A stretch of 64,000 nt of DNA from the NCBI GenBank assembly GCA_965263185.1, contig OZ253588.1, positions 1,153,454 through 1,217,453 on the forward strand, read 5' to 3'. The stretch is from Dehalococcoidia bacterium. Its GTDB lineage: Bacteria; Chloroflexota; Dehalococcoidia; Lucifugimonadales; UBA2985. Position numbers and translations under genes: made by a program. The notes below the pieces were generated by a model that was given only the letters and a program-made list of their open reading frames with translations, was not told the origin of the DNA and ran no database searches. Shown here one piece after another: positions 2,745 through 59,572 of the stretch (position 1 is its first letter; each line of letters opens with the position of its first letter).

Positions 2745-3389
2745 ATGACAATCCATGAGTCCGGCGCAAAGCTGGTTCCCGTCACCGTGTGGTACGACTA
2801 CATTTGACCCTGGTGCTACATTGGCCTGGCCAGGTTGGACCAGCTAGAGCGGGAATTTCCACTGGACATCACCTATAAGACCTTCTATCTCAGGCCGGAC
2901 ACGCCTCCGGATGGCATTGTACGCGCGCCGAGGGAGGGCGAACAGCCGGGAGCGCCCCTCACGGGCCACATCGGCGAGGTGGCGGAGGAGGCCGGGCTTG
3001 TCATGAAGCGCGCGCCCCTCACTCCCAACAGCCGTCTGTCCTTTGAGGCATCCGAGTTCGCCAAGGACAAGGGCGTTTTTGAGCCTTTCCACAGGGCGTG
3101 CTACCGCGCCTTATGGGAAGACGGCGCCAACTTGGGCCTGCTTTCGGAGCTTCAGCATCTGGGGGAGCAGGTGGGCCTGGACCCTGCGGAGATGAAGGAA
3201 CGCCTGGACGCGGGCTACTACACCGCCCAGGCTCAGGCCCAGTACGAGGAGGCTATCTCCGTAGGCGTGCAGGGCATACCCTCCTTCATCATAGGGAGGT
3301 ACTTCTTCTCAGGCGCTCAGCCCTACGAGCTTTTCAAGAAGGTGGCCGATATGGCGCAGAAGGAGGGCAACTCCGAAGGGGAAGGCTGA
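2745..3389 (+). CDS. DsbA/FrnE-like thiol:disulfide oxidoreductase, putative selenoprotein (Sec at TGA 2805-2807)
   Basis: The ORF track starts at TTG 2835, which removes the redox motif. Reading the same frame upstream from ATG 2745 (GGGGGT SD-like) gives MTIHESGAKLVPVTVWYDYI-TGA-PWCYIGLARLDQ, i.e. UPWC where FrnE/DsbA proteins have CPWC. The C-terminal GVQGIPSFIIG is typical of DsbA. Confidence 0.7.
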
Positions 3390-3712
3390 TGGCCGGCCCC
3401 GCGTGACGCCTTTTGCCCGAATAAATGTCGAAAAAATTGCGTTGCCAGCCTATTGCATCATCGCAGGGGCTGGTGTATCTTATTCGGTAAGCTAAGAAAG
3501 GAGGTGATCAATATTTTGTTACCTGATAAACGGACTTCTAGTGAGGTGTCTGTAGCGTAAACGGCACCGGACGAAATGGCGCTCTGGTATCCGTTTACGG
3601 AATACCGGCAGGCACCGGACCCCGAAGTTCCCGGCTCAGTCCACCGGGACGGTCATTGACCGAAGCGCTTCGGGGTTCTTCATTTATCCGGATCAGCGGG
3701 GGCGTCCGCCCT

Positions 3713-4087
3713 TTAAGCGAACCAGATGCCGAGGTACTTGGTGAACCAGAATAGGCCGGCGTATGTGGCTGCGCCCGACGCCATTAGGACGATCAGCATG
3801 CGGCGGTATTGATATGCGCCACGTACGTTGCAGACTCCGCGGCCGCGCAGAAACAGGATGACAGCCAACGCCGCTATGCCGAGTCCGGTTGCCCTAAAGT
3901 ACCAACCGTAAGTGTAGTAGAGAGTGTCCCCAAGCGTCACCGCTTCGGCAGCGGTCGCTACGCCCAGCAATGCCAACACTACCGGCGATACGCAGCAAGT
4001 GATGGCGACCAGACCCGAAGCCACACCCACTAGGACTCCCCTTCTCAGAGACCTGTTCGCTGCCTCAGGCGCCGCGTTTTCAGACAT
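3713..4087 (-). CDS. Small 3-TM membrane protein with vicinal Cys in TM1 (MerT/MerF-like architecture)
   Basis: AITCCVSPVVLALLG resembles MerT ACCLGPLVLIALG. It has three hydrophobic segments and one further Cys in the loop. Assignment is by architecture only. Confidence 0.45.
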   Translation of the reverse strand: MSENAAPEAANRSLRRGVLVGVASGLVAITCCVSPVVLALLGVATAAEAVTLGDTLYYTYGWYFRATGLGIAALAVILFLRGRGVCNVRGAYQYRRMLIVLMASGAATYAGLFWFTKYLGIWFA

Positions 4088-4267
4088 CGTCTAGTCCTTC
4101 GTTCAGAGAAGTTGCTACCCTGATCTTGGCTGATTCATCAGGCCTGTCTGCTGTGTTTGGGCACGTCAACAAGGGTTTGATGCCGATGGGGTCCAGACGG
4201 TTTCACCCAGAACCACCTCTAAAGCCGACAGTGGGCAGGTGGGGGTTTGCTATGCTGGATTCGCCTC

Positions 4268-5350
4268 CTAGTCGAAGCTCTGGAGGCCTTGAACGGCGCC
4301 CGCGTCCAGCCTGCGGATGACGGCTTCCACCAGGTCAACCGTGCGGTCGAAGTCCTCGCGGCTGATTATCCCGTAGTGGCTGTGGAGATAGCGGGTTGGG
4401 ACGGCTATGTTGATGGCGGGAGCGCCACCGTGCGACCGCTGCATCTCGGCGCCGTCCTCGCCGTAGCCGCTCAGGACGTCGAACTGGACGGGTATCTCCT
4501 GGGCCTCAGCCACGTCCAGAATCAGGTCCCGCAGCTTAAGGCTGGGCAGCATGGAGGAGTCGTGCAGAAAGATGGCCGGGCCTTTGCCCAGGCTTTCCTG
4601 GGACTCGTCCTGGGTCATGCCCGGGAAGTCCCCGGCAACTCCCGACTCTATGTTGATGCCTATGTCCGGCTCAATGCGATAGCTGCTGGTGTGCGCCCCC
4701 CGCAGTCCAACTTCCTCCTGGACCGTTGCCACGGCGTAGACCGCGCAGGGCGGCGCGCCGGCCTTGAGACGCTTCACCACCTCAATCATGACCGCCAGGC
4801 CAACGCGGTCATCCCAGGCCTTGGCAAGGTACAGCTTGCCGCCGCTCATAGGCGTGAAGAGGCTGTCCGGCGCTATGGGGTCGCCGGGACGGATGCCAAG
4901 CCGCTCCTCGGCGTCCTTCAGGTCGGCGGCGCCCACGTCAATGAACATCTGCTCCCGTTTGAAGACCTGCGCGCGGGCCTCCGTAGTCATAACGTGGACG
5001 GTCTTGATGCCCGAAACGCCGTGCACCGGGCCGTTCCTGGTCTGAATCACCCAGCGTTGGTTGATTAGGGCCTGGTCCAGCCACCCGCCCAGGGCCTGGA
5101 ACTTCACGTAGCCCTCCGGGGTAACGAACCTGACCATCAGGCCAACCTCGTCCATGTGAGCGGCCATCATAACCCGCGGAGCGCCGCCGTCCTCGCCCAG
5201 CCTACCTATCAGCGACCCGATGCCGTCGGTCTCGACGTGGTTGCAGAGGGGCGATAGCTCGCGCTGCATGACGGCCCTGACCGGGCCCTCAAAGCCCGAT
5301 GGCCCGTGAGCGTTGGTCAGCTCCTCAAGCAGAGACTCGATATTGTCCAT
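4268..5350 (-). CDS. M42 family metallopeptidase (FrvX/PepA-like aminopeptidase)
   Basis: The N-terminus LLEELTNAHGPSGFEGPVR, the motif HMDEVGLMV and a 360-aa length are typical of M42. Confidence 0.85.
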   Translation of the reverse strand: MDNIESLLEELTNAHGPSGFEGPVRAVMQRELSPLCNHVETDGIGSLIGRLGEDGGAPRVMMAAHMDEVGLMVRFVTPEGYVKFQALGGWLDQALINQRWVIQTRNGPVHGVSGIKTVHVMTTEARAQVFKREQMFIDVGAADLKDAEERLGIRPGDPIAPDSLFTPMSGGKLYLAKAWDDRVGLAVMIEVVKRLKAGAPPCAVYAVATVQEEVGLRGAHTSSYRIEPDIGINIESGVAGDFPGMTQDESQESLGKGPAIFLHDSSMLPSLKLRDLILDVAEAQEIPVQFDVLSGYGEDGAEMQRSHGGAPAINIAVPTRYLHSHYGIISREDFDRTVDLVEAVIRRLDAGAVQGLQSFD

Positions 5351-17901: not shown

Positions 17902-19606
17902 CCCGAATCCACCGAAGGACACGGATGGGCGGCGTGAGGACCGGAGAAGGGGGATGAGAGAGCTACAGGGGAGATGGCCTGGGCTCGATTGGGGTAGATG
18001 GGAGGTCGGCGGAGGGACTTCAGTCACCGCACAGGCCCCCAATGGCCGTCTGCGGGAGCTGGGATGCGGGGGATGGCAAGAGAATAGGCAGCAGGGAACT
18101 CCCGCGGAGCTGGTTGGTGCGAGTTGGCGGGGACGTTGGGTCAGTGGCGGAGGGCGCCGTCAGGCTGGGAGTGGAATGGCTCGCAGCCGGGCCAGGGCGC
18201 GACTGAACTGGGTATCCCAGGGCCAGCGCCGGGGAAGATGCAGGGTCAATCGGCGTGCCGAGCGAGTGAGCCGTCCGGCCAAGGCGAAGACCCGTCGTCT
18301 GAGGGTCTTGGTGGTCACGATCTGCTCACCCAGGCCGATGCGGGCTGTCCAGCGGGCCAGGTTGTGTGCCATCACCTGTACCGCCAGCCAGGCTCCGTTG
18401 GCGGCGAAGCGGCCGGACGGCATGTGGTTCAGTCCGACACCGTACTTGAGGTCGCGTATCGCATTCTCGATCTCGGCGTGACGGCGATGATCAGCCTCCA
18501 GTTCGAGCATCTCCCCATCGCGGTCGGTGATGAAGCCGTGATAGCTGTAGGTGGCGAAGAGGGCCAACTGGGAACCGGGCGTGGGTTTCACCCGCCGGAC
18601 GATGAGCCGCACCGGCGCGGCGTCGGGCTCACTCTGGAAGGGGATATAGGTGGTCTCTGCCACATCGGCGGCGCCGTCCATCCAGTAGGGAATGGGAGTC
18701 CAGTCCTCTTCTGGTATGGCCTCGATGACATTGTGCAGGCTTTTGTGCTGGCGGATGGTGATGGAGAAGCGGACATCCATCTTGCGGCAGACGGATACCA
18801 CGCTATGAGCGTAGAAGCCGCTGTCGGCCCGCATCGTGAGTTGTCCCCTGGCCCCGGCGAAGCGCACCCGCCCCACCGTCTCACGCAGGAAGTGGGCGGC
18901 GCCGCGGGCGGTGTTGGCCCGGCCCTCGCGCAGCCGGGCCATCAGCACGTCTCCGGTTCCGGCGGCGACGGCCAGCAGCGGGTGATAGCCCCGCTGACCG
19001 GTGTAACCATGGTGGCGCGCCCCTTCCTTGGCCAGTCCATAGGTCTCGCAGATGGTGGAGTCCAGGTCGATGGTCAGGGGCCCGTCGCCGGGTCCGGCCC
19101 CGGCAGCCCAGGCCCGGGCCAGCAACTCCCGGCTAACCCGGTCCAGTTGGCGGACATGGCCCCACCTGAAGCTGCGCAGGAAGGCGCCCAGGGTGGAGGG
19201 AGCCTTAGCCGTGAAACCGAGAACGCGGGCGGTCCCGCCGGCGCGTAGCACATCGGCGTCGTCGATGCAGTCGCCACCGGCCAACGCGGAGGCCACCAGC
19301 GTCATCATCTTGTCACCGGTGTTGGCTCTGCCTTTTGCATGGCCCAGGTCCAGGTGCCGGTCAACCAGTTGGGGCAGGCCAAGGCGCAGGGCCAGGGTGG
19401 ACGGAAGAATCAGCCCGGCATTGGCCACCAGGCGGTGATCATCGAAGGCGATGCGGATGCGGTCGGGTTGGTGGCGTGGTAGCATCTATTGGGTGCTCCT
19501 TTTCCGGGACTGGTTTGCTGTTACAAAACCATTATCCCAGATTCAGAGGAGCACCCTTTGGCCACTTCAGGACGCTGACCCGACGCCCTCCTTCGGTGGA
19601 TTCGGG
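17902..19606 (-). mobile_element. IS1380-family insertion sequence, copy 1 (1705 bp)
   Basis: Perfect 17-bp terminal inverted repeats CCCGAATCCACCGAAGG. 5-bp direct target duplication CTTAT (17897-17901 and 19607-19611). Near-identical second copy at 54921-56625. Confidence 0.9.
18160..19485 (-). CDS. IS1380-family DDE transposase
   Basis: 441 aa. The C-terminal HRRHAEIENAIRDLKYGVGLNHMPSGRFAANGAWL block is typical of IS1380 transposases. Confidence 0.85.
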   Translation of the reverse strand: MLPRHQPDRIRIAFDDHRLVANAGLILPSTLALRLGLPQLVDRHLDLGHAKGRANTGDKMMTLVASALAGGDCIDDADVLRAGGTARVLGFTAKAPSTLGAFLRSFRWGHVRQLDRVSRELLARAWAAGAGPGDGPLTIDLDSTICETYGLAKEGARHHGYTGQRGYHPLLAVAAGTGDVLMARLREGRANTARGAAHFLRETVGRVRFAGARGQLTMRADSGFYAHSVVSVCRKMDVRFSITIRQHKSLHNVIEAIPEEDWTPIPYWMDGAADVAETTYIPFQSEPDAAPVRLIVRRVKPTPGSQLALFATYSYHGFITDRDGEMLELEADHRRHAEIENAIRDLKYGVGLNHMPSGRFAANGAWLAVQVMAHNLARWTARIGLGEQIVTTKTLRRRVFALAGRLTRSARRLTLHLPRRWPWDTQFSRALARLRAIPLPA

Positions 19607-51829: not shown

Positions 51830-52951
51830 CTATACCGGGACCCCCACCTTTTGGGCCAGCCTCTGGAGGTATCTGCCCTCCATAGTCATAGCCTTGCCGG
51901 GGCGACCCTCGCGGGATGCCACAATCTCCGCAACTATGCTCATGGCTATCTCCTCCGGCGTCTTGGCGCCGATGTCCAGGCCAACGGGCGCATGGACAGC
52001 CTGCAACCTCTCCAGGGGGATGCCATGCCGAAGCAGTTCTTCGTAAATGAGGATGGTCTTGCGCCGGCTGCCCACCAGGCCCACGTAGCCTGCGGGGCTG
52101 CGAACGGCAGCCTCCAGGGCGCGGTCGTCCTCGCGGTGCCCCCTGGTCGCTATCACAACCGAGCTGTTGGGGCGAATGTCCAGTTGGGTTAGACCCTCGG
52201 CGTAGTCAGCAACCACCACGCTGTCGGCCTCTGGGAACCGCTCTTTGTTGGCGAACTCAGGCCGGTCGTCTACAACGTGCAACCGCAGGCCCATCATCTT
52301 CACCAGTGGAGCCAGGGACTTGCCTATGTGGCCTCCTCCCGCAACTATGACGGAGGCCGGCATGGTATAGCCCTCCAGGAAGACCTGCGCGCCGTCCTGT
52401 GTGACCAGCACCTTGACCCTCCCGTAGTCCACAAGCCCACGGAGAGCCTCGGACACCTCCTTGTCACGCAGTGGGTCGCCCACGGATCCACTGACCTCCC
52501 CGTCATCTCCGATAAAGAGCTTGTCCCCCACATTTCCCTTGTCCTGGGAAGGCTTCAGAAGAGTGGCCAGACCCACGCCGGGTTTCCCGTCGTACGCGCC
52601 GACGATTTCGCTCACGGGCTGCATGACAGCCCCCGGCTCCAGGACGGGGTCAATGAGGAAGTACATGGTGCCGCCGCATACCAGCCCCTCCCTGGCCGCG
52701 ATGTCCTCGTTCAACTCGTAGTCAGTAACGGTGGGCCCTCCGCCCTCCTTCAAGAGCATCTTGGCGGCAAACCATATGTCCCCTTCCACGCAGCCGCCTC
52801 CCAGGGTGCCCACGCCGCTGCCGTCCTCGCGCACCAGCAGCTTGGCTCCGGGCTTCTGGGGAGTGGACCCCTTGGCGCCCACCACCGTGGCGATTACAAA
52901 CGGCTCGCCTTTATCCAGCAGATTCAATGCTTCCCTGAAAACTTCTTCCAT
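51830..52951 (-). CDS. XdhC/CoxI family accessory protein
   Basis: VIATVVGAKGSTPQKPGAKLLV..GTLGGGCVE N-domain and a Rossmann-like C-domain (VIVAGGGHIG). Confidence 0.85.
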   Translation of the reverse strand: MEEVFREALNLLDKGEPFVIATVVGAKGSTPQKPGAKLLVREDGSGVGTLGGGCVEGDIWFAAKMLLKEGGGPTVTDYELNEDIAAREGLVCGGTMYFLIDPVLEPGAVMQPVSEIVGAYDGKPGVGLATLLKPSQDKGNVGDKLFIGDDGEVSGSVGDPLRDKEVSEALRGLVDYGRVKVLVTQDGAQVFLEGYTMPASVIVAGGGHIGKSLAPLVKMMGLRLHVVDDRPEFANKERFPEADSVVVADYAEGLTQLDIRPNSSVVIATRGHREDDRALEAAVRSPAGYVGLVGSRRKTILIYEELLRHGIPLERLQAVHAPVGLDIGAKTPEEIAMSIVAEIVASREGRPGKAMTMEGRYLQRLAQKVGVPV

Positions 52952-53483
52952 GACTGCTCCCTAATTACTCAGGATTTGGAGATATACCACAGGGCTAATT
53001 ATACCACATCGCGTTGAGTTTGCCTCAACAATTTGGACGCAGGGTCGCGATGGGCAAGTCCATTGTACTCCATTCTCCCGTTTTGCGCACGGAGACGAGT
53101 GCAAAATAGAATCCCTATAGCACCGGCCAATACTGTCCGCACTCCCGTTCCCCTTGATCTAGCCTAGCCCCTAGGGTAGTTGGCCCTGCCATCGTCTCGG
53201 ATTTAGTCGGCTGCCAAGGTAGAAGTGAAAACCTGTAGTCAAGGTCTGGCACCGTGCCCCCTTGCGAGAGGTTTTCACTTGACTCCGGCGACAATGGCAC
53301 GTAGCCAGATCCCACAGCTCATTGAAAGGCAGGTCGCCAAAGGAGTATGCTGAAGCTGTAACTCCACTCTACTAGCCTCGGATACTAATAACGGGGTAAG
53401 GTCAGTAGAGCCTACCATGCTCAGTAGATTTGTCCTACCAAATTGGTACAGAGAAGCAGGCTAATGTCTAGAGGGGGTGGACT

Positions 53484-54524
53484 ATGGTACAGAAAAATGC
53501 GAGCAAGGGCAAAACTTCGCCCAGCCATAGATTCCAGACGCTGATCCGTCGATTGTCGCAGGCAGGGTTTGACAAAGGATTCGTTCGCCCAGCCCTTCTG
53601 CCTGACTGGTGGGATGAAACTTGCGACCAAGACCCCGATCTGTTGCCAGACTTCGAAATAAGGGTGGCAAGGTTTTTAGGGATGCCTCTCACTAGCATAC
53701 GGGACTCTGGCACCACTTTGGCCCTACCACCATTTCCGGGTGCGAAGCTACGTCGGGTGCGAGACGTTGATAGTGAGCGTCTAAAACCAGCAATTCACTT
53801 GGCTGTTAGGATTGCTGAAGCAACAGTTCGTAGTCTTCGGGACCCCACATCCCAACCTGTGATACCTCCCATTGACGGGATCGAATGGCGCAAGAACATT
53901 GAGTCTAATGGCTCTGCCATCACTCTGGATCAGATGCTCGGCGACCTGTGGCTACGTGGCATCCCCGTCGTTCCGCTGGAAATAATCCCAGCTCCCAGTT
54001 TCCAGGCCATTGCGTGCATCGTAGAGGACCGGCCCGTAATCTTGCTTGGCTACAAATATGACGAACCCGGACGCATAGCCTTCTTGTTGGCACATGAGGC
54101 CGCGCATCTCGCTGTGGGCGACTGCGATTCCGACCATATCGTCTTAGATGGTGAAGAAGGGATTGTAGATGAAACGGACATTGAAGTTAAGGCTGACCAG
54201 TATGCTCACAATGTGCTTGTCGGGGAGAAACAAATACCTGAACTGGAGAATCGAGAGTTCAAGGGAATTGCCAAAGAGTCGGCGGAACAAGAACGTTTGA
54301 CGGGTATCGACGCCGGAATTATCATAGCGGACTGGGCTTCGCGCACACGGGAATACGCCAAGGCTACTATGGCGTTGAAAGCCCTCTATCGGAGTTCAGG
54401 CGGAAGGCAAAAGATTGGTCGGTATTTTAATAGTCTGGTTGACGTTGCGTCCGCGACCGAGAGTGACCGCAACCTGCTACGCTGTGTGTACGGCGTGTCG
54501 AATTTGTATGAAACTGTTGGTTGA
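53484..54524 (+). CDS. ImmA/IrrE (COG2856)-like zinc metallopeptidase domain protein
   Basis: HExxH motif in FLLAHEAAHLAVGD. 346 aa. No recognisable HTH. First gene of an overlapping operon in a lower-GC island. Confidence 0.65.
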   Translation: MVQKNASKGKTSPSHRFQTLIRRLSQAGFDKGFVRPALLPDWWDETCDQDPDLLPDFEIRVARFLGMPLTSIRDSGTTLALPPFPGAKLRRVRDVDSERLKPAIHLAVRIAEATVRSLRDPTSQPVIPPIDGIEWRKNIESNGSAITLDQMLGDLWLRGIPVVPLEIIPAPSFQAIACIVEDRPVILLGYKYDEPGRIAFLLAHEAAHLAVGDCDSDHIVLDGEEGIVDETDIEVKADQYAHNVLVGEKQIPELENREFKGIAKESAEQERLTGIDAGIIIADWASRTREYAKATMALKALYRSSGGRQKIGRYFNSLVDVASATESDRNLLRCVYGVSNLYETVG

Positions 54525-54920
54525 TACTGATGCCTTTTGCAAGTTGTCTGCGAGCGGATTGTTCTTCAAGGCGATTGATCTCCTTGGGGCAGATATCACC
54601 GAATGTGCTCGGTTACCGGCCCTTCCGTACATGCTAAAGAAGGGCCGATTGAGGACTATGTATGGCCCTGCAGTATGTGACGAATTGATGCCGATTGCTC
54701 ATAGTATGCCCATCGTGGATTGCACTAACAACGTCTGGCTGGACAAGTTGACGTTGGTGCAATCAATAGACCCTGGTGAGGCTCAACTCTTCGCAATGGG
54801 CGCTGCGACCGGGTTTCTAGTGATGACCGGAGACAAACGTGCACTTCGTGAGCTAAAGAGTATTCCCGATTTCCCCCAATTGCTTTCCGGACGTATAGTC
54901 GTATTGGAGACTGTTCTAAT
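54508..54920 (+). pseudogene. PIN-like domain protein, N-terminal fragment (split by IS1380-family insertion)
   Basis: MKLLVDTDAFCKL.., DPGEAQLFA and LVMTGDKRALREL give the D/E/D pattern of PIN-like nucleases. It overlaps the upstream gene by 17 nt, and the frame runs into the IS at 54921. Confidence 0.55.
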
Positions 54921-56625
54921 CCCGAATCCACCGAAGGACACGGATGGGCGGCGTGAGGACCGGAGAAGGGGGATGAGAGAGCTACAGGGGAGATGGCCTG
55001 GGCTCGATTGGGGTAGATGGGAGGTCGGCGGAGGGACTTCAGTCACCGCACAGGCCCCCAATGGCCGTCTGCGGGAGCTGGGATGCGGGGGATGGCAAGA
55101 GAATAGGCAGCAGGGAACTCCCGCGGAGCTGGTTGGTGCGAGTTGGCGGGGACGTTGGGTCAGTGGCGGAGGGCGCCGTCAGGCTGGGAGTGGAATGGCT
55201 CGCAGCCGGGCCAGGGCGCGACTGAACTGGGTATCCCAGGGCCAGCGCCGGGGAAGATGCAGGGTCAATCGGCGTGCCGAGCGAGTGAGCCGTCCGGCCA
55301 AGGCGAAGACCCGTCGTCTGAGGGTCTTGGTGGTCACGATCTGCTCACCCAGGCCGATGCGGGCTGTCCAGCGGGCCAGGTTGTGTGCCATCACCTGTAC
55401 CGCCAGCCAGGCTCCGTTGGCGGCGAAGCGGCCGGACGGCATGTGGTTCAGTCCGACACCGTACTTGAGGTCGCGTATCGCATTCTCGATCTCGGCGTGA
55501 CGGCGATGATCAGCCTCCAGTTCGAGCATCTCCCCATCGCGGTCGGTGATGAAGCCGTGATAGCTGTAGGTGGCGAAGAGGGCCAACTGGGAACCGGGCG
55601 TGGGCTTCACCCGCCGGACGATGAGCCGCACCGGCGCGGCGTCGGGCTCACTCTGGAAGGGGATATAGGTGGTCTCTGCCACATCGGCGGCGCCGTCCAT
55701 CCAGTAGGGAATGGGAGTCCAGTCCTCTTCTGGTATGGCCTCGATGACATTGTGCAGGCTTTTGTGCTGGCGGATGGTGATGGAGAAGCGGACATCCATC
55801 TTGCGGCAGACGGATACCACGCTATGAGCGTAGAAGCCGCTGTCGGCCCGCATCGTGAGTTGTCCCCTGGCCCCGCCGTAGCGAACCCGGCTCACCGTTT
55901 CACGCAGGAAGTGCGCGGCGCCGCGGGCGGTGTTGGCCCGGCCCTCCCGCAGCCGGGCCAGCAGCACGTCTCCGGTTCCGGCGGCGACGGCCAGCAGCGG
56001 GTGATAGCCCCGCACACCGGTGTAGCCGTGGTGGCGTGCGCCCTCCTTGGCCAGTCCGTAGGTCTCGCAGATGGTGGAGTCCAGGTCGATGGTCAGGGGC
56101 CCGTCGCCTGGTCCGGCCCCAGCCGCCCAGGCCCGGGCCAGCAACTCGCGGCTCACCCGGTCCAGTTGGCGGACATGGCCCCACCTGAAGCTGCGCAGGA
56201 AGGCGCCCAGGGTGGAGGGAGCCTTAGCCGTGAAACCGAGAACGCGGGCGATCCCCCCGGCGCGTAGCACATCGGCGTCGTCGATGCAGTCGCCACCGGC
56301 CAACGCGGAGGCCACCAGCGTCATCATCTTGTCACCGGTGTTGGCTCTGCCTTTTGCATGGCCCAGGTCCAGGCGCCGGTCAACCAGTTGGGGCAGGCCA
56401 AGGCGCAGGGCCAGGGTGGACGGAAGAATCAGCCCGGCATTGGCCACCAGGCGGTGATCATCGAAGGCGATGCGGATGCGGTCGGGTTGGTGGCGTGGTA
56501 GCATCTATTGGGTGCTCCTTTTCCGGGACTGGTTTGCTGTTACAAAACCATTATCCCAGATTCAGAGGAGCACCCTTTGGCCACTTCAGGACGCTGACCC
56601 GACGCCCTCCTTCGGTGGATTCGGG
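54921..56625 (-). mobile_element. IS1380-family insertion sequence, copy 2 (1705 bp)
   Basis: Same 17-bp terminal IRs as copy 1. 5-bp target duplication CTAAT (54916-54920 and 56626-56630). Confidence 0.9.
55179..56504 (-). CDS. IS1380-family DDE transposase
   Basis: 441 aa. Differs from the copy-1 protein at a handful of positions clustered in the N-terminal half. Confidence 0.85.
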   Translation of the reverse strand: MLPRHQPDRIRIAFDDHRLVANAGLILPSTLALRLGLPQLVDRRLDLGHAKGRANTGDKMMTLVASALAGGDCIDDADVLRAGGIARVLGFTAKAPSTLGAFLRSFRWGHVRQLDRVSRELLARAWAAGAGPGDGPLTIDLDSTICETYGLAKEGARHHGYTGVRGYHPLLAVAAGTGDVLLARLREGRANTARGAAHFLRETVSRVRYGGARGQLTMRADSGFYAHSVVSVCRKMDVRFSITIRQHKSLHNVIEAIPEEDWTPIPYWMDGAADVAETTYIPFQSEPDAAPVRLIVRRVKPTPGSQLALFATYSYHGFITDRDGEMLELEADHRRHAEIENAIRDLKYGVGLNHMPSGRFAANGAWLAVQVMAHNLARWTARIGLGEQIVTTKTLRRRVFALAGRLTRSARRLTLHLPRRWPWDTQFSRALARLRAIPLPA

Positions 56626-56829
56626 CTAATTGCTCTTTGTGATCGGTTCGGGCCTGACAAGATACGCCAATGCATTCAGGGACTGGCCGCATGGGACATA
56701 GTCGCCCGGAATAGTTTCTCCTCTGGCAACACCGATCCTCGGGATGGCCTGAACTCGTATTACAATGACCTCGAGGTCGAAGTCGACCCGTTAGTCCTGT
56801 GGAATCCTAGATCGCAAGGGAACTCATGA
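56626..56829 (+). pseudogene. PIN-like domain protein, C-terminal fragment
   Basis: Removing the IS and one TSD copy restores ..VVLETVLIALCDRFGPDKIRQ.. in frame. The stop overlaps the next start (ATGA). Confidence 0.55.
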
Positions 56830-57866
56830 CTTTCGGCTCTTGCCATTACGTGCCTGTATTGAAAATGAAGCGTGGTGAAAAGGGCGCGCTTCGTGCCATC
56901 ATACCTAGCCTTCGACCACGCATTACACCATTGCTAGAAATTGTGGAGAGAACTAAACCCACAGTGGGGGAGCACCTCGATACTGCTTTCAAGGATCTTG
57001 CAGAGAGCCTTCAAGGATACCAGCGTTGTTTCCTAGACACCCGTGCAATCGCTCTGGACGGCCCACCGGCTGCAGAAGAAGTCTTCAATCGGGCGAATGC
57101 GGCTGGTATTTCCTTTACACCAGTTACTGGAGTCACTAGGACCGAGGACGTTGCTGCTGCCCTTAGCCACAATTCCAACGGAGTGGCCTTACGTCTAACC
57201 CGTCAGGAATTCGAGGACGGACTCCTCCCCGGAGCTATTCCAAGAGTAATGGGTACGCATGGGCTTACTCCAGAGGAAATAGACCTCATAATTGATCTGG
57301 GCCCAGTTGATGATTTCGTTACCGATGGTATTGTCGCGTTAACCAACGCCTTTCTCGCAGAAGTCCCCCATCATACAAGATGGCGGACATTCACCATTTC
57401 AGGATGCGCATTCCCGCCGAACATGGGGATAGTACCACGAAACTCTTATGCTTATGTTGAGCGTACAGAGTGGCTTGCTTGGAGAGATAATCTCCGGGCG
57501 AGTGCGAATGCGATTCCACGTGTCCCAACATTTAGCGACTGCGCCATTCAGCACCCCATTGGCGTGGAGGGCTTTGACCCAACGTTCATGAAAGTCTCTG
57601 CCTCCCAAAGATACACGCTAGATGAGCACTGGCTTTTAATTAAAGGTGAAAGCACAAAGAACTTTCCAGCAAGGGATCAATTTCCAAGTCTAGCCACCCA
57701 ACTAGTTTACGGATTTCATAGGGGTTCTTATATGGGACCCCAGCATTGTCAGGGATGTGAACAAATTGAAAGAGCGGCAAATGGTGAACCCAAACTCGGT
57801 TCAGCAGAAGTTTGGCGCCGGATCGGCACAATTCACCACATTTCTACAGTTGTGCAGCATCTGTAA
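56826..57866 (+). CDS. Beta-protein / sce7725-like family protein (function unknown)
   Basis: The N-terminal YVPVLKMKRGEKGALRAI matches, from memory, the YxPxLKxKxGExxAL hallmark of the Beta_protein family. 346 aa. Confidence 0.55.
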   Translation: MTFGSCHYVPVLKMKRGEKGALRAIIPSLRPRITPLLEIVERTKPTVGEHLDTAFKDLAESLQGYQRCFLDTRAIALDGPPAAEEVFNRANAAGISFTPVTGVTRTEDVAAALSHNSNGVALRLTRQEFEDGLLPGAIPRVMGTHGLTPEEIDLIIDLGPVDDFVTDGIVALTNAFLAEVPHHTRWRTFTISGCAFPPNMGIVPRNSYAYVERTEWLAWRDNLRASANAIPRVPTFSDCAIQHPIGVEGFDPTFMKVSASQRYTLDEHWLLIKGESTKNFPARDQFPSLATQLVYGFHRGSYMGPQHCQGCEQIERAANGEPKLGSAEVWRRIGTIHHISTVVQHL

Positions 57867-58440
57867 TTCTTTTCCTGACCCTAAGCTGGGTCCTCACCCT
57901 GTCGGCGATTTCCTGTGTTTTGAAGAAATGACACACTTTGTCCCAGACAACCCTGCGAGGCTTTCCACGTACGCCACGCGCCGCAGAGCGTTCTTCCAGA
58001 AGTGCGATGGCTTCGTTATGCCATAACAGCTCAACCAAAGCCCTAGAATCGACAGATACGTTTTTCTTGGGTCGCCTTATAGTCTTAATTCTTGAAGTTC
58101 TTGGACCACCCGTAAAGAGTAAGACCCCCCACCATTCAGGAACGATCTCCAGGACTGAAGTGAGGTGACGTTCGCCCACAACTATCGTGGCCCGGTCTAA
58201 TACTTTACTGTACAGCTCAACCTGATGGTCGAGGCGATGTAGACTGTCACGATCAGACTTAATTTCGTATCCCTCGAGAGAGGAATTTACCACCAACATG
58301 TCTATTCGCACTGAACCCCGACAGATTCCGAGCTCTTCAATTAACAGGAAATCTGCGCAATTTGTATGTCTACTGAACAGCCGCTGACGTAACGCTTGTC
58401 GAATATCTGAGTCACTCGAAAGGGGGTTCCGGTTATCCAT
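57844..58440 (-). CDS. sce7726-like protein, predicted PD-(D/E)xK nuclease fold
   Basis: IEELGICRGSVRIDMLVVNSSLEGYEIKSDRDSLHRL gives a D..E-x-K arrangement. Start is ATG 58440. The 3' end overlaps the convergent gene by 23 nt. Confidence 0.55.
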   Translation of the reverse strand: MDNRNPLSSDSDIRQALRQRLFSRHTNCADFLLIEELGICRGSVRIDMLVVNSSLEGYEIKSDRDSLHRLDHQVELYSKVLDRATIVVGERHLTSVLEIVPEWWGVLLFTGGPRTSRIKTIRRPKKNVSVDSRALVELLWHNEAIALLEERSAARGVRGKPRRVVWDKVCHFFKTQEIADRVRTQLRVRKRITDAAQL

Positions 58441-58495
58441 GCCGTTCGGATTCTCCTTAAGTGATCCTGTTCTCACTCTACCACGTCCCGAAGCT

Positions 58496-58765
58496 TCATG
58501 CCACCCGCCTGACCTGCCAGCGCAGGTACTCAACCTGACCAGAGACAACGCGCGTCAGAGCCGTCGCCTGGAATGCCAAGACCGACATAGTGTTGTGCAG
58601 GCTGATCTTCCTGATCCCACGCACACAGTGGGCTTCCAGCCGTCTGGATTGCTTCAGGCTCTTGAAGACCCGCTCCACGCTTTGCCGCAGGACGTACAGG
58701 TCCTTCCACTCACGGCTCCCCGCACGTAAAAGGGGTTGACAGGCGTTATCAGGAGCGGGTATCAT
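58496..58765 (-). pseudogene. C-terminal remnant of an IS4/IS5-superfamily (DDE_Tnp_1) transposase
   Basis: YVLRQSVERVFKSLKQSRRLEAHCVRGIRKISLHNTMSVLAFQATAL is the typical C-terminal block. No catalytic N-terminal part is present. Confidence 0.6.
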
Positions 58766-58781
58766 GTAAGCAAACGCTTAC
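58736..58781 (+). promoter_or_regulatory. Candidate promoter plus palindromic operator upstream of the TetR gene
   Basis: TTGACA (58736-41), 18-nt spacer, TATCAT (58760-65), then GTAAGC-AAAC-GCTTAC (58766-81). Confidence 0.5.
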
Positions 58782-58794
58782 TTGCAACAATGCT

Positions 58795-59372
58795 ATGAGT
58801 ACACGGATGGAAAGACAGAGCACCCTGATACGGCAGCACCAGATTATAGAAGCTGCCAGAAATCTCATCACCGAGCAGCCATAGCCGAGCAGGTGGGACT
58901 GACCGAGGGGGCCATCTACCGCCACTTTGCCAGCAAGCGACAGATATTCTCCCTGCTCATAGACGACATAGAGACAAACCTGCTGAATACGGTGCGCAAC
59001 GCCCGGGTGGAAGGGGCCTCCGCAATGGAGAACATGGAACGCATCCTTGAGGCCCATCTCAGCGACGTAGAGAGTCACAGAGCGGTCTCCTTCATCATCA
59101 TCACAGAGGCCGTGAGCTTCGACGGCATTGGCCTCAGCTCCCGCGTATCCCTGATGCTTACTCACTACCTGGAGTTTCTGCGTGGAGTCCTGGAGGAGGG
59201 TATCCGGGAGGGCAGCATCAGGCCCGACCTAGACCCGGATGCGGCGGCGACCGCGTTTCTCGGCATGGTGCAGAGCACTGCCACTCTGTGGGCCCTCAAC
59301 AGCTACTCGATGACGTTGGCGGAGCAGCGGGCCCAGATGTGGAGCATATATAAGAGAGGGGTTGCCTCCTAG
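58795..59372 (+). pseudogene. TetR-family regulator with disrupted HTH region (frame change near 58880)
   Basis: ATG 58795 gives MSTRMERQSTLIRQHQIIEAARNLITEQP* (helix 1). The rest (AIAEQVGLTEGAIYRHFASKRQIF..) is in the frame of ORF 58782-59372. The linker residues between the two are missing. Confidence 0.6.
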
Positions 59373-59572
59373 GTTTGACCCCAATCTCAAAATTGCCTCC
59401 CGGCGTCATGGGGCCGCAGAAATTGGACGGACCCCGTGAGACTCATCCGGGAGAGGCATAGATACACCCGGGGCATCTGCTCCGGATGAGACCCGGCGAT
59501 GGACGCCAACACAGGAGGACACGCGCTGCTAATGGCGCGTCCACTATGAAGGGTCTACAAAGGAGGTAAACC

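Follow-up and report, generated by a model that had tools for sequence, protein, structure and literature searches.

A stretch of 64,000 nucleotides (nt) from a Dehalococcoidia bacterium (GenBank assembly GCA_965263185.1, contig OZ253588.1, positions 1,153,454 to 1,217,453), called the window below, carries between its positions 53484 and 58440 a compact set of four genes. A peptidase-like gene, a gene for a PIN-like protein and a gene of the Beta family follow each other on the plus strand, and a gene of the phage P4 cII (sce7726) family converges on them from the opposite side. This arrangement is a conserved cassette whose recurrence goes beyond chance. In the window, its PIN-like gene is split by an insertion sequence (IS) of the IS1380 family. 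We consider it reasonably probable that the cassette is a mobile two-module abortive-infection system, inactivated here; we infer its function from what is known about relatives of its components.

The peptidase-like gene (53484-54524, plus strand; 346 amino acids (aa) in the list of open reading frames (ORFs)) has a purine-rich Shine-Dalgarno sequence immediately 5´ of its ATG at 53484, as read from the sequence. Its end overlaps the start of the PIN-like gene by 17 nt. According to our reconstruction, the PIN-like gene begins with ATG 54508, its codons 1-137 occupy positions 54508-54920 of the plus strand, and its 3´ part, encoding the helical C-terminal extension of the protein, is found beyond the IS at 56631-56829 of the same strand. 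The stop codon of the PIN-like gene and the start codon of the Beta gene (56826-57866, plus strand) share the sequence ATGA at 56826-56829. The cII gene (57844-58440, minus strand, 198 aa) has its family-consistent start at ATG 58440, and the 3´ ends of the Beta and cII genes overlap convergently by 23 nt. The first-pass annotation of this DNA, made from the letters alone, had given these coordinates together with the 17-nt, ATGA and 23-nt overlaps; the ORF list and reading of the sequence agree with it in every instance.

To define the distribution of the cassette, one genome per GTDB species was searched with a profile of the PIN-like protein. The census yielded 103 confirmed loci, 80 of which were analysed by means of ORFs and hidden Markov models (HMMs). 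All four genes are present in 66 of the 80 loci. The canonical order with each gene at least 85% complete was found in 47 loci, and another 12 keep the canonical order with one gene split or cut. Four genes in rearranged order occur in 7 distant loci, which come from Variovorax, Roseateles, Comamonadaceae and Lysobacter relatives. The 14 partial loci represent contig ends or remnants. Carriers belong, among others, to Chloroflexota, Acidobacteriota, Gemmatimonadota, Nitrospirota, Myxococcota, Planctomycetota, Pseudomonadota, Bacillota and Actinomycetota, and the same cassette is present on metagenome contigs at 63-98% identity. Not only the gene content but also the junctions are retained. Among the 47 intact canonical loci, the overlap of the peptidase and PIN-like genes equals 17 nt in 34, and the PIN-like and Beta genes share ATGA in 30 and a single nucleotide in 6 more. 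The convergent overlap of Beta and cII amounts to at least 23 nt in all 47 (35 nt in 19 of them, 44 nt in 17). It had been proposed that the first three genes form one tightly overlapping unit and that co-occurrence of all four families in other genomes would speak for a conflict system. The overlapping unit and the co-occurrence are borne out by the census and the metagenome contigs, and the patchy, mobile distribution across phyla is supported together with the conflict-type domain make-up.

Several departures from the canonical arrangement were observed as well. In the rearranged loci (L080-L084, L090 and L091), the Beta and cII genes precede the peptidase/PIN pair, and those of Variovorax point in the same direction instead of converging. 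One of these loci (L081) belongs to Variovorax paradoxus MEDvA23 (NZ_JXQQ01000010), a cultured carrier of the four genes. Loci L085-L089 (e.g. from metagenome-assembled genomes (MAGs) of Candidatus Palauibacter) look like remnants and contain no Beta or cII. In most of them a peptidase-like gene, full or split, precedes a stretch for no more than the first 43-53 residues of the PIN-like protein (58-67% identical). These loci have either decayed from the cassette or represent another C-terminal fusion. Finally, in a Vicinamibacterales MAG (L034, OZ251506.1) the PIN-like gene is followed at once by cII, with next to nothing left of Beta (HMM coverage 0.06), which is possibly a natural Beta deletion.

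The four protein families

The peptidase-like protein consists of an N-terminal domain with an invariant LPxWW motif, a zinc-peptidase core of the M78/ImmA/IrrE/CapP type and a helical tail. The HExxH motif of the core reads HEAAH (residues 204-208) and is followed by a downstream glutamate 26 residues past it. Residues H204, E205, H208 and E234, as well as P40, W42 and W43 of the N-terminal domain, are invariant in 40 sequences of the family, distant ones included. When the family profile was compared with the PDB, CapP (7t5t) was matched at 4.8e-5 and IrrE came next at 0.02-0.2. The PADLOC models matched are PD-Lambda-2_B (1.7e-5, a weak match limited to the peptidase part), capP (1.5e-4) and, weakly, RmrA. 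The family is large (769 clusters at 50% identity) and homogeneous, nearly all members being 325-350 aa long and matching over their full length; a tblastn search of cultured phage genomes gave no match. The invariant HExxH+E and the profile matches to CapP and IrrE agree with the assignment to M78-type peptidases that had been made from the motif. No family of helix-turn-helix (HTH) proteins is matched by any of the four locus proteins in Pfam, NCBIfam and PADLOC scans, so that the absence of an XRE partner, noticed on first inspection, is confirmed within the scope of these scans.

Residues 1-150 of the peptidase-like protein (53484-53930), which include the invariant P40-x-W42-W43 ('LPDWWD'), match no family. 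This N-terminal domain is placed where PD-lambda-2B and RmrA have an Xre HTH, and could be either an HTH that has degenerated or a sensor domain of a new kind.

The product of the second gene belongs to no Pfam (E 0.1), NCBIfam or PADLOC (E 0.1) family, and its profile finds nothing meaningful in the PDB by sequence. Membership in DUF4411 was considered and is not supported, since no Pfam match appears at E 0.1. More informative is the AlphaFold2 (AF2) model, which has a predicted local distance difference test (pLDDT) score of 92.5. In a Foldseek search of the PDB with this model, the top 14 matches are all PIN/VapC/PAE2754 structures with probability 0.99-1.0 and target template modelling (TM) scores of 0.5-0.64. 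In an alignment of 65 sequences, acidic residues D6, D8 and D109 never vary, and conservation of D88 and E91 reaches at least 90%. A helical C-terminal extension of about 65 residues continues beyond the PIN core. We thus predict that the protein adopts a PIN fold with its acidic active-site residues kept and acts as a nuclease; the modelled fold and the conserved residues are in line with the original assignment.

The third protein is a clear member of the Beta family (Pfam PF14350, E 9e-57). It is closer to PADLOC model PD-Lambda-2_C, matched at 4.4e-33 over residues 8-344, than to the P4-specific model 'beta', to which no match was found. Its AF2 model (pLDDT 92.7) has as top match in BFVD gp33 of Gordonia phage Powerball (TM 0.82, E 1e-21). 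Against the PDB, Foldseek returns weak and consistent matches to TIM barrels, namely DHPS, triosephosphate isomerase, aldolases and MTHFR; by sequence, the profile finds nothing meaningful there. Y8, P10, P35, P99, D238 and H338 are invariant across the whole Beta family including P4 beta, and E18, D157 and Y263 nearly so. Based on the model, we predict for Beta a divergent TIM-barrel-like (beta/alpha) structure. As far as can be judged from the secondary-structure string, several of its conserved charged residues would lie at or near the C-terminal strand ends, where active sites of TIM barrels sit. A literature search on PF14350 found no paper.

Within the four-gene subfamily, Beta also contains invariant H307-C308-x-G310-C311 and H337-H338. 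Only H338 is kept in the wider family, in which the first motif is replaced by SxGD. The pattern of residues hints at a metal site.

The fourth protein matches NCBIfam sce7726_fam (NF033832) at 7.7e-48 (162.8 bits, cutoff 70) and PADLOC 'cll' at 8.2e-28, and is 30% identical to cII of phage P4 (BLASTP, E 4e-16). Its homologues carry the precomputed annotation PF26915 Phage_P4_cII, and RefSeq in turn names P4 cII 'sce7726 family protein' and P4 beta 'beta family protein'. The view that Beta and sce7726 proteins have no assigned role must be corrected accordingly: sce7726 is P4 cII, and Beta belongs to the family of P4 beta and PD-Lambda-2_C. In 30 cII sequences, among them those of P4, the Rac-SA53 prophage and Powerball, residues E36, D47, E59-x-K61 and Q73 are invariant, which resembles a PD-(D/E)xK-like signature. 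The cII profile has no sequence match in the PDB. Each of the four cassette proteins matches PHROG families, the match of cII being a weak one to 'DNA repair protein'.

The TIM-barrel matches of Beta invite a metabolic explanation of the locus, in which Beta would be an enzyme of ordinary metabolism and the remaining proteins its accessories. Foldseek indeed puts Beta among metabolic enzymes, and some neighbouring genes are metabolic. The structural matches are weak, however (E about 1e-3, TM 0.3-0.5), carriers are scattered patchily, and the locus lies in a low-GC island. Phages, a satellite and plasmids contain homologues, the nuclease-like cII is an obligatory partner of Beta, and Beta is homologous to a component tested in defence. 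A housekeeping function is hence hardly credible to us.

Known relatives and the two modules of the cassette

Two validated anti-phage systems, both toxin-antitoxin-like, contain Beta. The first is gop-beta-cII of phage P4, which protects against lambda and P1 and whose Gop is toxic without beta (Rousset et al. 2022, PMC9122126); gop and beta were first described as a toxin/antitoxin-like pair (PMC9122126, citing Ghisotti 1990). The names of PADLOC v2.0.0 models were checked on P4 itself, where Gop corresponds to 'gop' (5e-70), beta to 'beta' (8e-188) and cII to 'cll' (3e-113); P4 beta also matches PD-Lambda-2_C. As in the window, Beta of P4 is followed by convergent cII, extra coding capacity is tightly coupled 5´ of Beta, and the genes are situated on mobile DNA. 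The differences concern primarily the upstream slot. None of the four cassette proteins matches the gop model, and the place of Gop (133 aa, no Pfam match, PADLOC 'gop' 4.8e-70) is taken by the peptidase and PIN-like genes. In addition, Beta and cII of P4 are separated by a 27-nt gap overlapping an annotated terminator, whereas their ends overlap in the window.

The second system, PD-lambda-2, is composed of a HigB-like protein, a fusion of an Xre HTH with a peptidase and a protein 'related to a P4 phage antitoxin', and is anti-phage (Vassallo et al. 2022, PMC9519451). Its peptidase protein B is toxic and rescued by HigB-like A, and Beta-like C is needed for defence (PMC9519451). The cassette shares with it a Beta-family component, an M78-type peptidase (a weak match to PD-Lambda-2_B), a partner of RNase type and a tightly overlapping, co-oriented operon. 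It differs in four respects. Firstly, the cassette has no HigB/RelE-like A gene and a PIN-fold protein stands in its place. Secondly, the order is peptidase, nuclease and Beta in the window versus toxin-like protein, peptidase and Beta in PD-lambda-2. Thirdly, the window peptidase lacks a detectable Xre HTH and has the LPxWW N-terminal domain instead. Fourthly, cII is a constant additional gene of the cassette. Neither PD-Lambda-2 nor gop_beta_cll is called as a complete system at the window locus by the PADLOC v2.0.0 models. A published mechanism was found for neither PD-lambda-2 nor P4 gop-beta-cII.

More distant parallels exist for the peptidase/PIN pair. Three-component systems of a COG2856/DUF955 peptidase with a RelE or PIN toxin have been predicted (Makarova 2009, PMC2701414; Matelska 2017, PMC5499597). 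These COG2856+PIN systems and Rosmer (RmrT/RmrA) resemble the cassette in having an ImmA/IrrE-type peptidase beside a PIN-like nuclease. Compared with the predicted systems, no HTH domain or Xre gene was found at the locus, its PIN protein falls outside Pfam families and it is coupled to Beta/cII. CapH/CapP (regulators of CBASS), ImmR/ImmA of ICEBs1 and IrrE/DdrO have the same HExxH + Glu core, CapP being the best solved relative. Their peptidases cleave an adjacent Xre-type repressor and in this way turn transcription on, while no such repressor was found at the window locus and the neighbour has a nuclease fold. VapBC shares the PIN fold and acidic residues corresponding to D6, D8, D88/E91 and D109, and VapC toxins are the top structural neighbours of the PIN-like protein. 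The cassette has, on the other hand, no small VapB-type antitoxin; its PIN-like protein is a 203-aa one with a helical extension, and the partner is a peptidase-like protein of 346 aa.

The original statement that the locus resembles no named system thus does not stand: Beta and cII are shared with gop-beta-cII, Beta with PD-lambda-2, and combinations of COG2856 and PIN proteins were predicted in 2009 and 2017. Since an M78 peptidase without detectable HTH and a PIN protein precede Beta, we regard the cassette as a PIN-type variant that combines features of PD-lambda-2 and gop-beta-cII. It is best filed as the PIN-type counterpart of RelE/HigB-type PD-lambda-2, with the cII partner of P4, and is not categorically new.

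Each half of the cassette can also be found alone. Seeding IMG/VR with cII gave 58 viral loci, and in 42 of them Beta adjoins cII on the opposite strand, mostly with overlapping ends. The peptidase-like or PIN-like gene of the cassette is present in none of these 42 viral loci. Of 25 Beta hits on PLSDB plasmids, at least 19 name 'beta family protein | sce7726 family protein' for one and the same match, and hosts of the plasmid pairs include Agrobacterium, Rhizobium, Sinorhizobium, Rhodococcus, Bacillus, Acinetobacter and E. coli. The Rac-SA53 prophage and phage Powerball contain the same pair. What precedes Beta varies among Gop-sized genes (P4-like), short M78 peptidases (two loci), HTH/MazE-like genes, or nothing. 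The opposite half, a peptidase/PIN pair with no Beta/cII nearby, occurs on plasmid pANN4383.04 of Annamia dubia (AP025634.1, 13908-15617; L156) and in locus L079. The HMM E-values of the distant peptidase/PIN pairs are 5e-53 and 4e-21; the Annamia peptidase matches RmrA of Rosmer at 3e-13, and a UvrD-type helicase gene lies downstream.

A convergent Beta/cII pair with overlapping 3´ ends is the near-universal arrangement of these two genes. Its carriers are phages, prophages and plasmids from Proteobacteria, Actinobacteria and Firmicutes, and viral and plasmid pairs often have no tightly coupled upstream gene. Beta/cII may therefore be a self-contained two-gene module.

Because each pair is also found alone, we see in the four-gene cassette two modules, peptidase/PIN and Beta/cII, that are stably fused. 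The same separate occurrence (42 of the 58 viral loci and many plasmids for one pair, the Annamia plasmid and L079 for the other) might be taken to mean that two independent neighbours travel together with no functional interaction. We find this quite unlikely. The junction of the PIN-like and Beta genes is ATGA in 30 of the 47 intact loci, and another 6 have a 1-nt overlap there. The linkage has persisted through at least nine phyla (45-98% identity) and survives in the seven rearranged loci, and the Beta homologue of PD-lambda-2 is genetically required beside its toxin/peptidase pair (PMC9519451).

A bridging locus is present on plasmid p4 of Rhizobium lentis (NZ_CP071458.1, 51463-54823; L157). 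There, genes matching PD-Lambda-2_B (3.6e-74) and PD-Lambda-2_C (5.5e-38) are followed by a cll gene (1.3e-26) that converges on the PD-Lambda-2_C gene and overlaps it; the overlaps are those of the cassette. The first gene of this locus encodes a PDC-M63A-like, not HigB-like, protein of 162 aa. It follows that cII may be an overlooked fourth member of some PD-lambda-2-type systems.

Proposed function and its alternatives

We suggest that the peptidase/PIN pair would act as a toxin and its controller, analogously to HigB and the Xre-peptidase of PD-lambda-2, to Rosmer and to the predicted COG2856+PIN systems. In an uninfected cell, the peptidase-like protein and the PIN-like nuclease would keep each other inactive. 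Beta, with or without cII, would supply an infection-sensing or licensing step; this role is assigned to it because Beta of PD-lambda-2 is dispensable for neutralisation of the toxin and essential for defence. Infection would then trigger the peptidase, and the PIN nuclease, once freed, would cut RNA, stop translation and abort the infection. M78 relatives, namely IrrE, CapP and ImmA, are switched on by DNA-damage or single-stranded DNA-type signals. A nucleic-acid trigger is plausible for the cassette too, as its M78 relatives respond to such cues and a putative nuclease-type site is present in cII. An additional layer of control, antisense or through transcriptional interference, could arise from the convergent overlap of the Beta and cII genes. 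Such overlap is not obligatory, given the 27-nt gap in P4 and the co-oriented genes in Variovorax.

Several observations weigh against this model or its parts. The peptidase-like protein scores 14 bits with Pfam Peptidase_M78 (PF06114), which is under the 22-bit gathering cutoff, and with no HTH detected it may act on no repressor in the way ImmA and CapP do. Foldseek E-values of the PIN-like protein are weak (around 1e-2), and so are the TIM-barrel matches of Beta given above. The BLASTP match of Beta to P4 beta is marginal and local (best E 0.023), with both proteins matching PF14350 at about 1e-56. The toxin of PD-lambda-2 is its peptidase protein and not the RNase-like one, so that either of the two partners may be the toxic one in the window cassette. 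Toxicity, neutralisation and phage defence are all extrapolated to the four-gene family from distant relatives. Lastly, among 132 flanking ORFs of about 35 GTDB loci, compared with Pfam and PADLOC and counted with no background model, there is no clear enrichment of defence islands and many neighbours are housekeeping genes: 2-3 ORFs are defence-like helicases or methyltransferases, 4 are transposases and 2 integrases. In a smaller sample of five metagenome contexts, two contain methyltransferases of the MmeI/Eco57I type and a PLD-SNF2 helicase.

The absence of a clear defence-island enrichment would suit a pure addiction or stabilisation module, i.e. a multi-component toxin-antitoxin which maintains a mobile element through post-segregational killing and takes no part in phage defence. 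The flanks of relatives contain transposases or integrases, with an integrase and conjugation genes in one case and IS clusters in others, and integrative elements, IS clusters and plasmids carry the cassette or adjoin it. Moreover, P4 gop/beta was first described as toxin/antitoxin-like (PMC9122126). Yet both characterised relatives sharing Beta protect against phages (PMC9122126, PMC9519451), and many copies are chromosomal, surrounded by housekeeping genes where no element in need of stabilisation is obvious. We consider addiction as the sole function unlikely; addiction and defence are in any case not mutually exclusive.

Another process in which M78 peptidases participate is regulation of mobile elements, and the ImmA/ImmR logic is the best-known role of such peptidases (PMC2701414). 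In an explanation of this kind, the window peptidase would be an ImmA-like anti-repressor protease, cII and Beta would be maintenance or lysogeny genes, and the locus would represent the decayed edge of an element. Short stand-alone M78 peptidase genes do lie just upstream of Beta in two viral contigs (L103 and L132), cII abuts an integrase in L009 and in P4, and a transposase fragment bounds the island in the window. Three facts nevertheless make a regulatory module very unlikely in our opinion: the family scans detected no XRE/HTH partner at the window locus, the compact four-gene unit enters unrelated contexts with no other genes of an element, and the partner of the peptidase is a PIN-fold protein with an intact acidic site, typical of toxins and not of regulators. 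The abortive-infection system remains the explanation we favour.

The cassette links two validated anti-phage systems through a Beta/cII core that is combined with differing upstream toxin modules. One can go further and imagine that Beta and cII constitute a portable infection-sensing core that plugs into swappable killing modules (Gop; HigB with the Xre-peptidase; M78 with PIN). The core would unite a TIM-barrel enzyme with a protein of PD-(D/E)xK nuclease fold, whose genes are in most cases tied to each other by convergent, overlapping transcription. We put this generalization forward as a doubtful one. If it is true, Beta would not be a passive antitoxin but an enzyme acting on a small molecule or a nucleic-acid end, through synthesis, destruction or binding, and thereby licensing the toxin, and the four-gene family would be the most widespread bacterial form of a large unrecognised defence superfamily. 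The conserved D238 and H338 of Beta, the E..D..ExK core of cII, the natural swaps of modules and the cultured carrier Variovorax paradoxus offer handles on these ideas. Two families with no Pfam models, the 203-aa PIN-like protein and the LPxWW peptidase, are added to the catalogue of defence proteins.

The insertion sequence and the surroundings of the locus

The element at 54921-56625 (1705 bp, minus strand) is an IS of the IS1380 family with a 5-bp target duplication. It has perfect 18-nt terminal inverted repeats and is flanked by two copies of CTAAT, the left one at 54916-54920 and the right one at 56626-56630. Its transposase (55179-56504, minus strand, 441 aa) is encoded antisense to the operon and matches NCBIfam transpos_IS1380 (NF033539) at 2.9e-96 (322.6 bits, cutoff 180) and Pfam DDE_Tnp_1_4 at 1.6e-57. 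Among the junctions tried, the reading frame of the PIN-like gene is restored only by excision of the IS together with one 5-bp copy, giving a product of 203 aa. This reconstructed protein has 525 homologues in a database clustered at 90%, most of them exactly 203 aa long, and an intact homologue is 98% identical to it. A 100%-identical match spanning 68% of the query turned out to be the truncated gene of OZ253588.1 itself. The DNA cured of the IS aligns gap-free with two related loci, which constitutes empty-site proof of insertion. The early suggestion that removal of the IS and one duplication copy yields an intact PIN-like gene has thus proved right, in protein length, in the 98%-identical homologue and in the gap-free alignments.

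A second copy of the IS (1705 bp) is located in the window at 17902-19606 in the same orientation. It differs by 26 mismatches (98.5% identity), has identical 18-nt inverted repeats and is surrounded by its own 5-bp duplication, CTTAT. The CTAAT and CTTAT sites together suggest a CTWAT target preference and recent IS activity in the genome.

The IS interrupts the PIN-like gene after codon 137 and cuts off the helical C-terminal part of the protein. It further breaks the translational coupling between the PIN-like and Beta genes, and an antisense transposase gene now stands between the promoter region of the operon and Beta. Because the PIN-like gene is split, an antisense transposase gene has been introduced and Beta is cut off from both promoter and coupling, the cassette copy in the window is very probably inactive. 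Selective loss of a costly toxin finds no support; a single insertion is concerned, and the same IS occupies a similar CTWAT target elsewhere in the window.

We also considered whether disruptions are aimed at the PIN toxin in general, and rejected the idea. Among the 80 loci, the gene found split or truncated is PIN-like in 3, Beta in 4-5 and peptidase in 1-2, and many of these may be assembly errors. A presumed second, independent inactivation of the PIN-like gene in L093 was likewise rejected: the gene was called with 156 aa but its translation is intact, so that a gene-calling artefact is responsible.

Mobile sequences accompany related copies of the cassette as well. An ENA contig with a 98%-identical intact cassette (L003) has fragments of an IS1380-type (DDE_Tnp_1_4) transposase directly upstream, at 3206-4277, with genes for an HNH protein and an HTH_3+M78 protein close by. 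Other IS elements enclose the cassette of L093 on both sides. It seems that the cassette moves within DNA rich in IS elements.

Scans of the window locus for promoters and terminators gave nothing above shuffled background. A sigma-70-like promoter candidate, TTGAAA-18-TATGCT at 53322..53351 of the plus strand, was obtained by a consensus scan; it matches 9 of 12 consensus positions, no better than shuffled sequence does, and is listed as a candidate only. An Rfam scan of 52500-59500 found no RNA. No tRNA gene and no attachment-type repeat were found at the island edges. As regards composition, the GC content is 0.49-0.54 across 52950-58750 and 0.60-0.65 in the flanks. To the left of this island are XdhC and a MobA-like gene, and to the right TetR, followed by an ABC/CBS protein and a permease of the ProV/ProW type. 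The GC profile places the right edge of the island at a C-terminal fragment of a DDE transposase (58496-58765, minus strand, 89 aa) of the IS1182/IS5/IS701 type, unrelated to the IS1380 copy. The fragment matches Pfam DDE_Tnp_1 at 1.6e-5 and NCBIfam IS1182 at 3.5e-6, the latter far under the cutoff. A lower-GC island with a transposase remnant at its right edge, as initially described, is therefore confirmed by composition and family matches, and the TetR gene lies past this remnant, outside the cassette.

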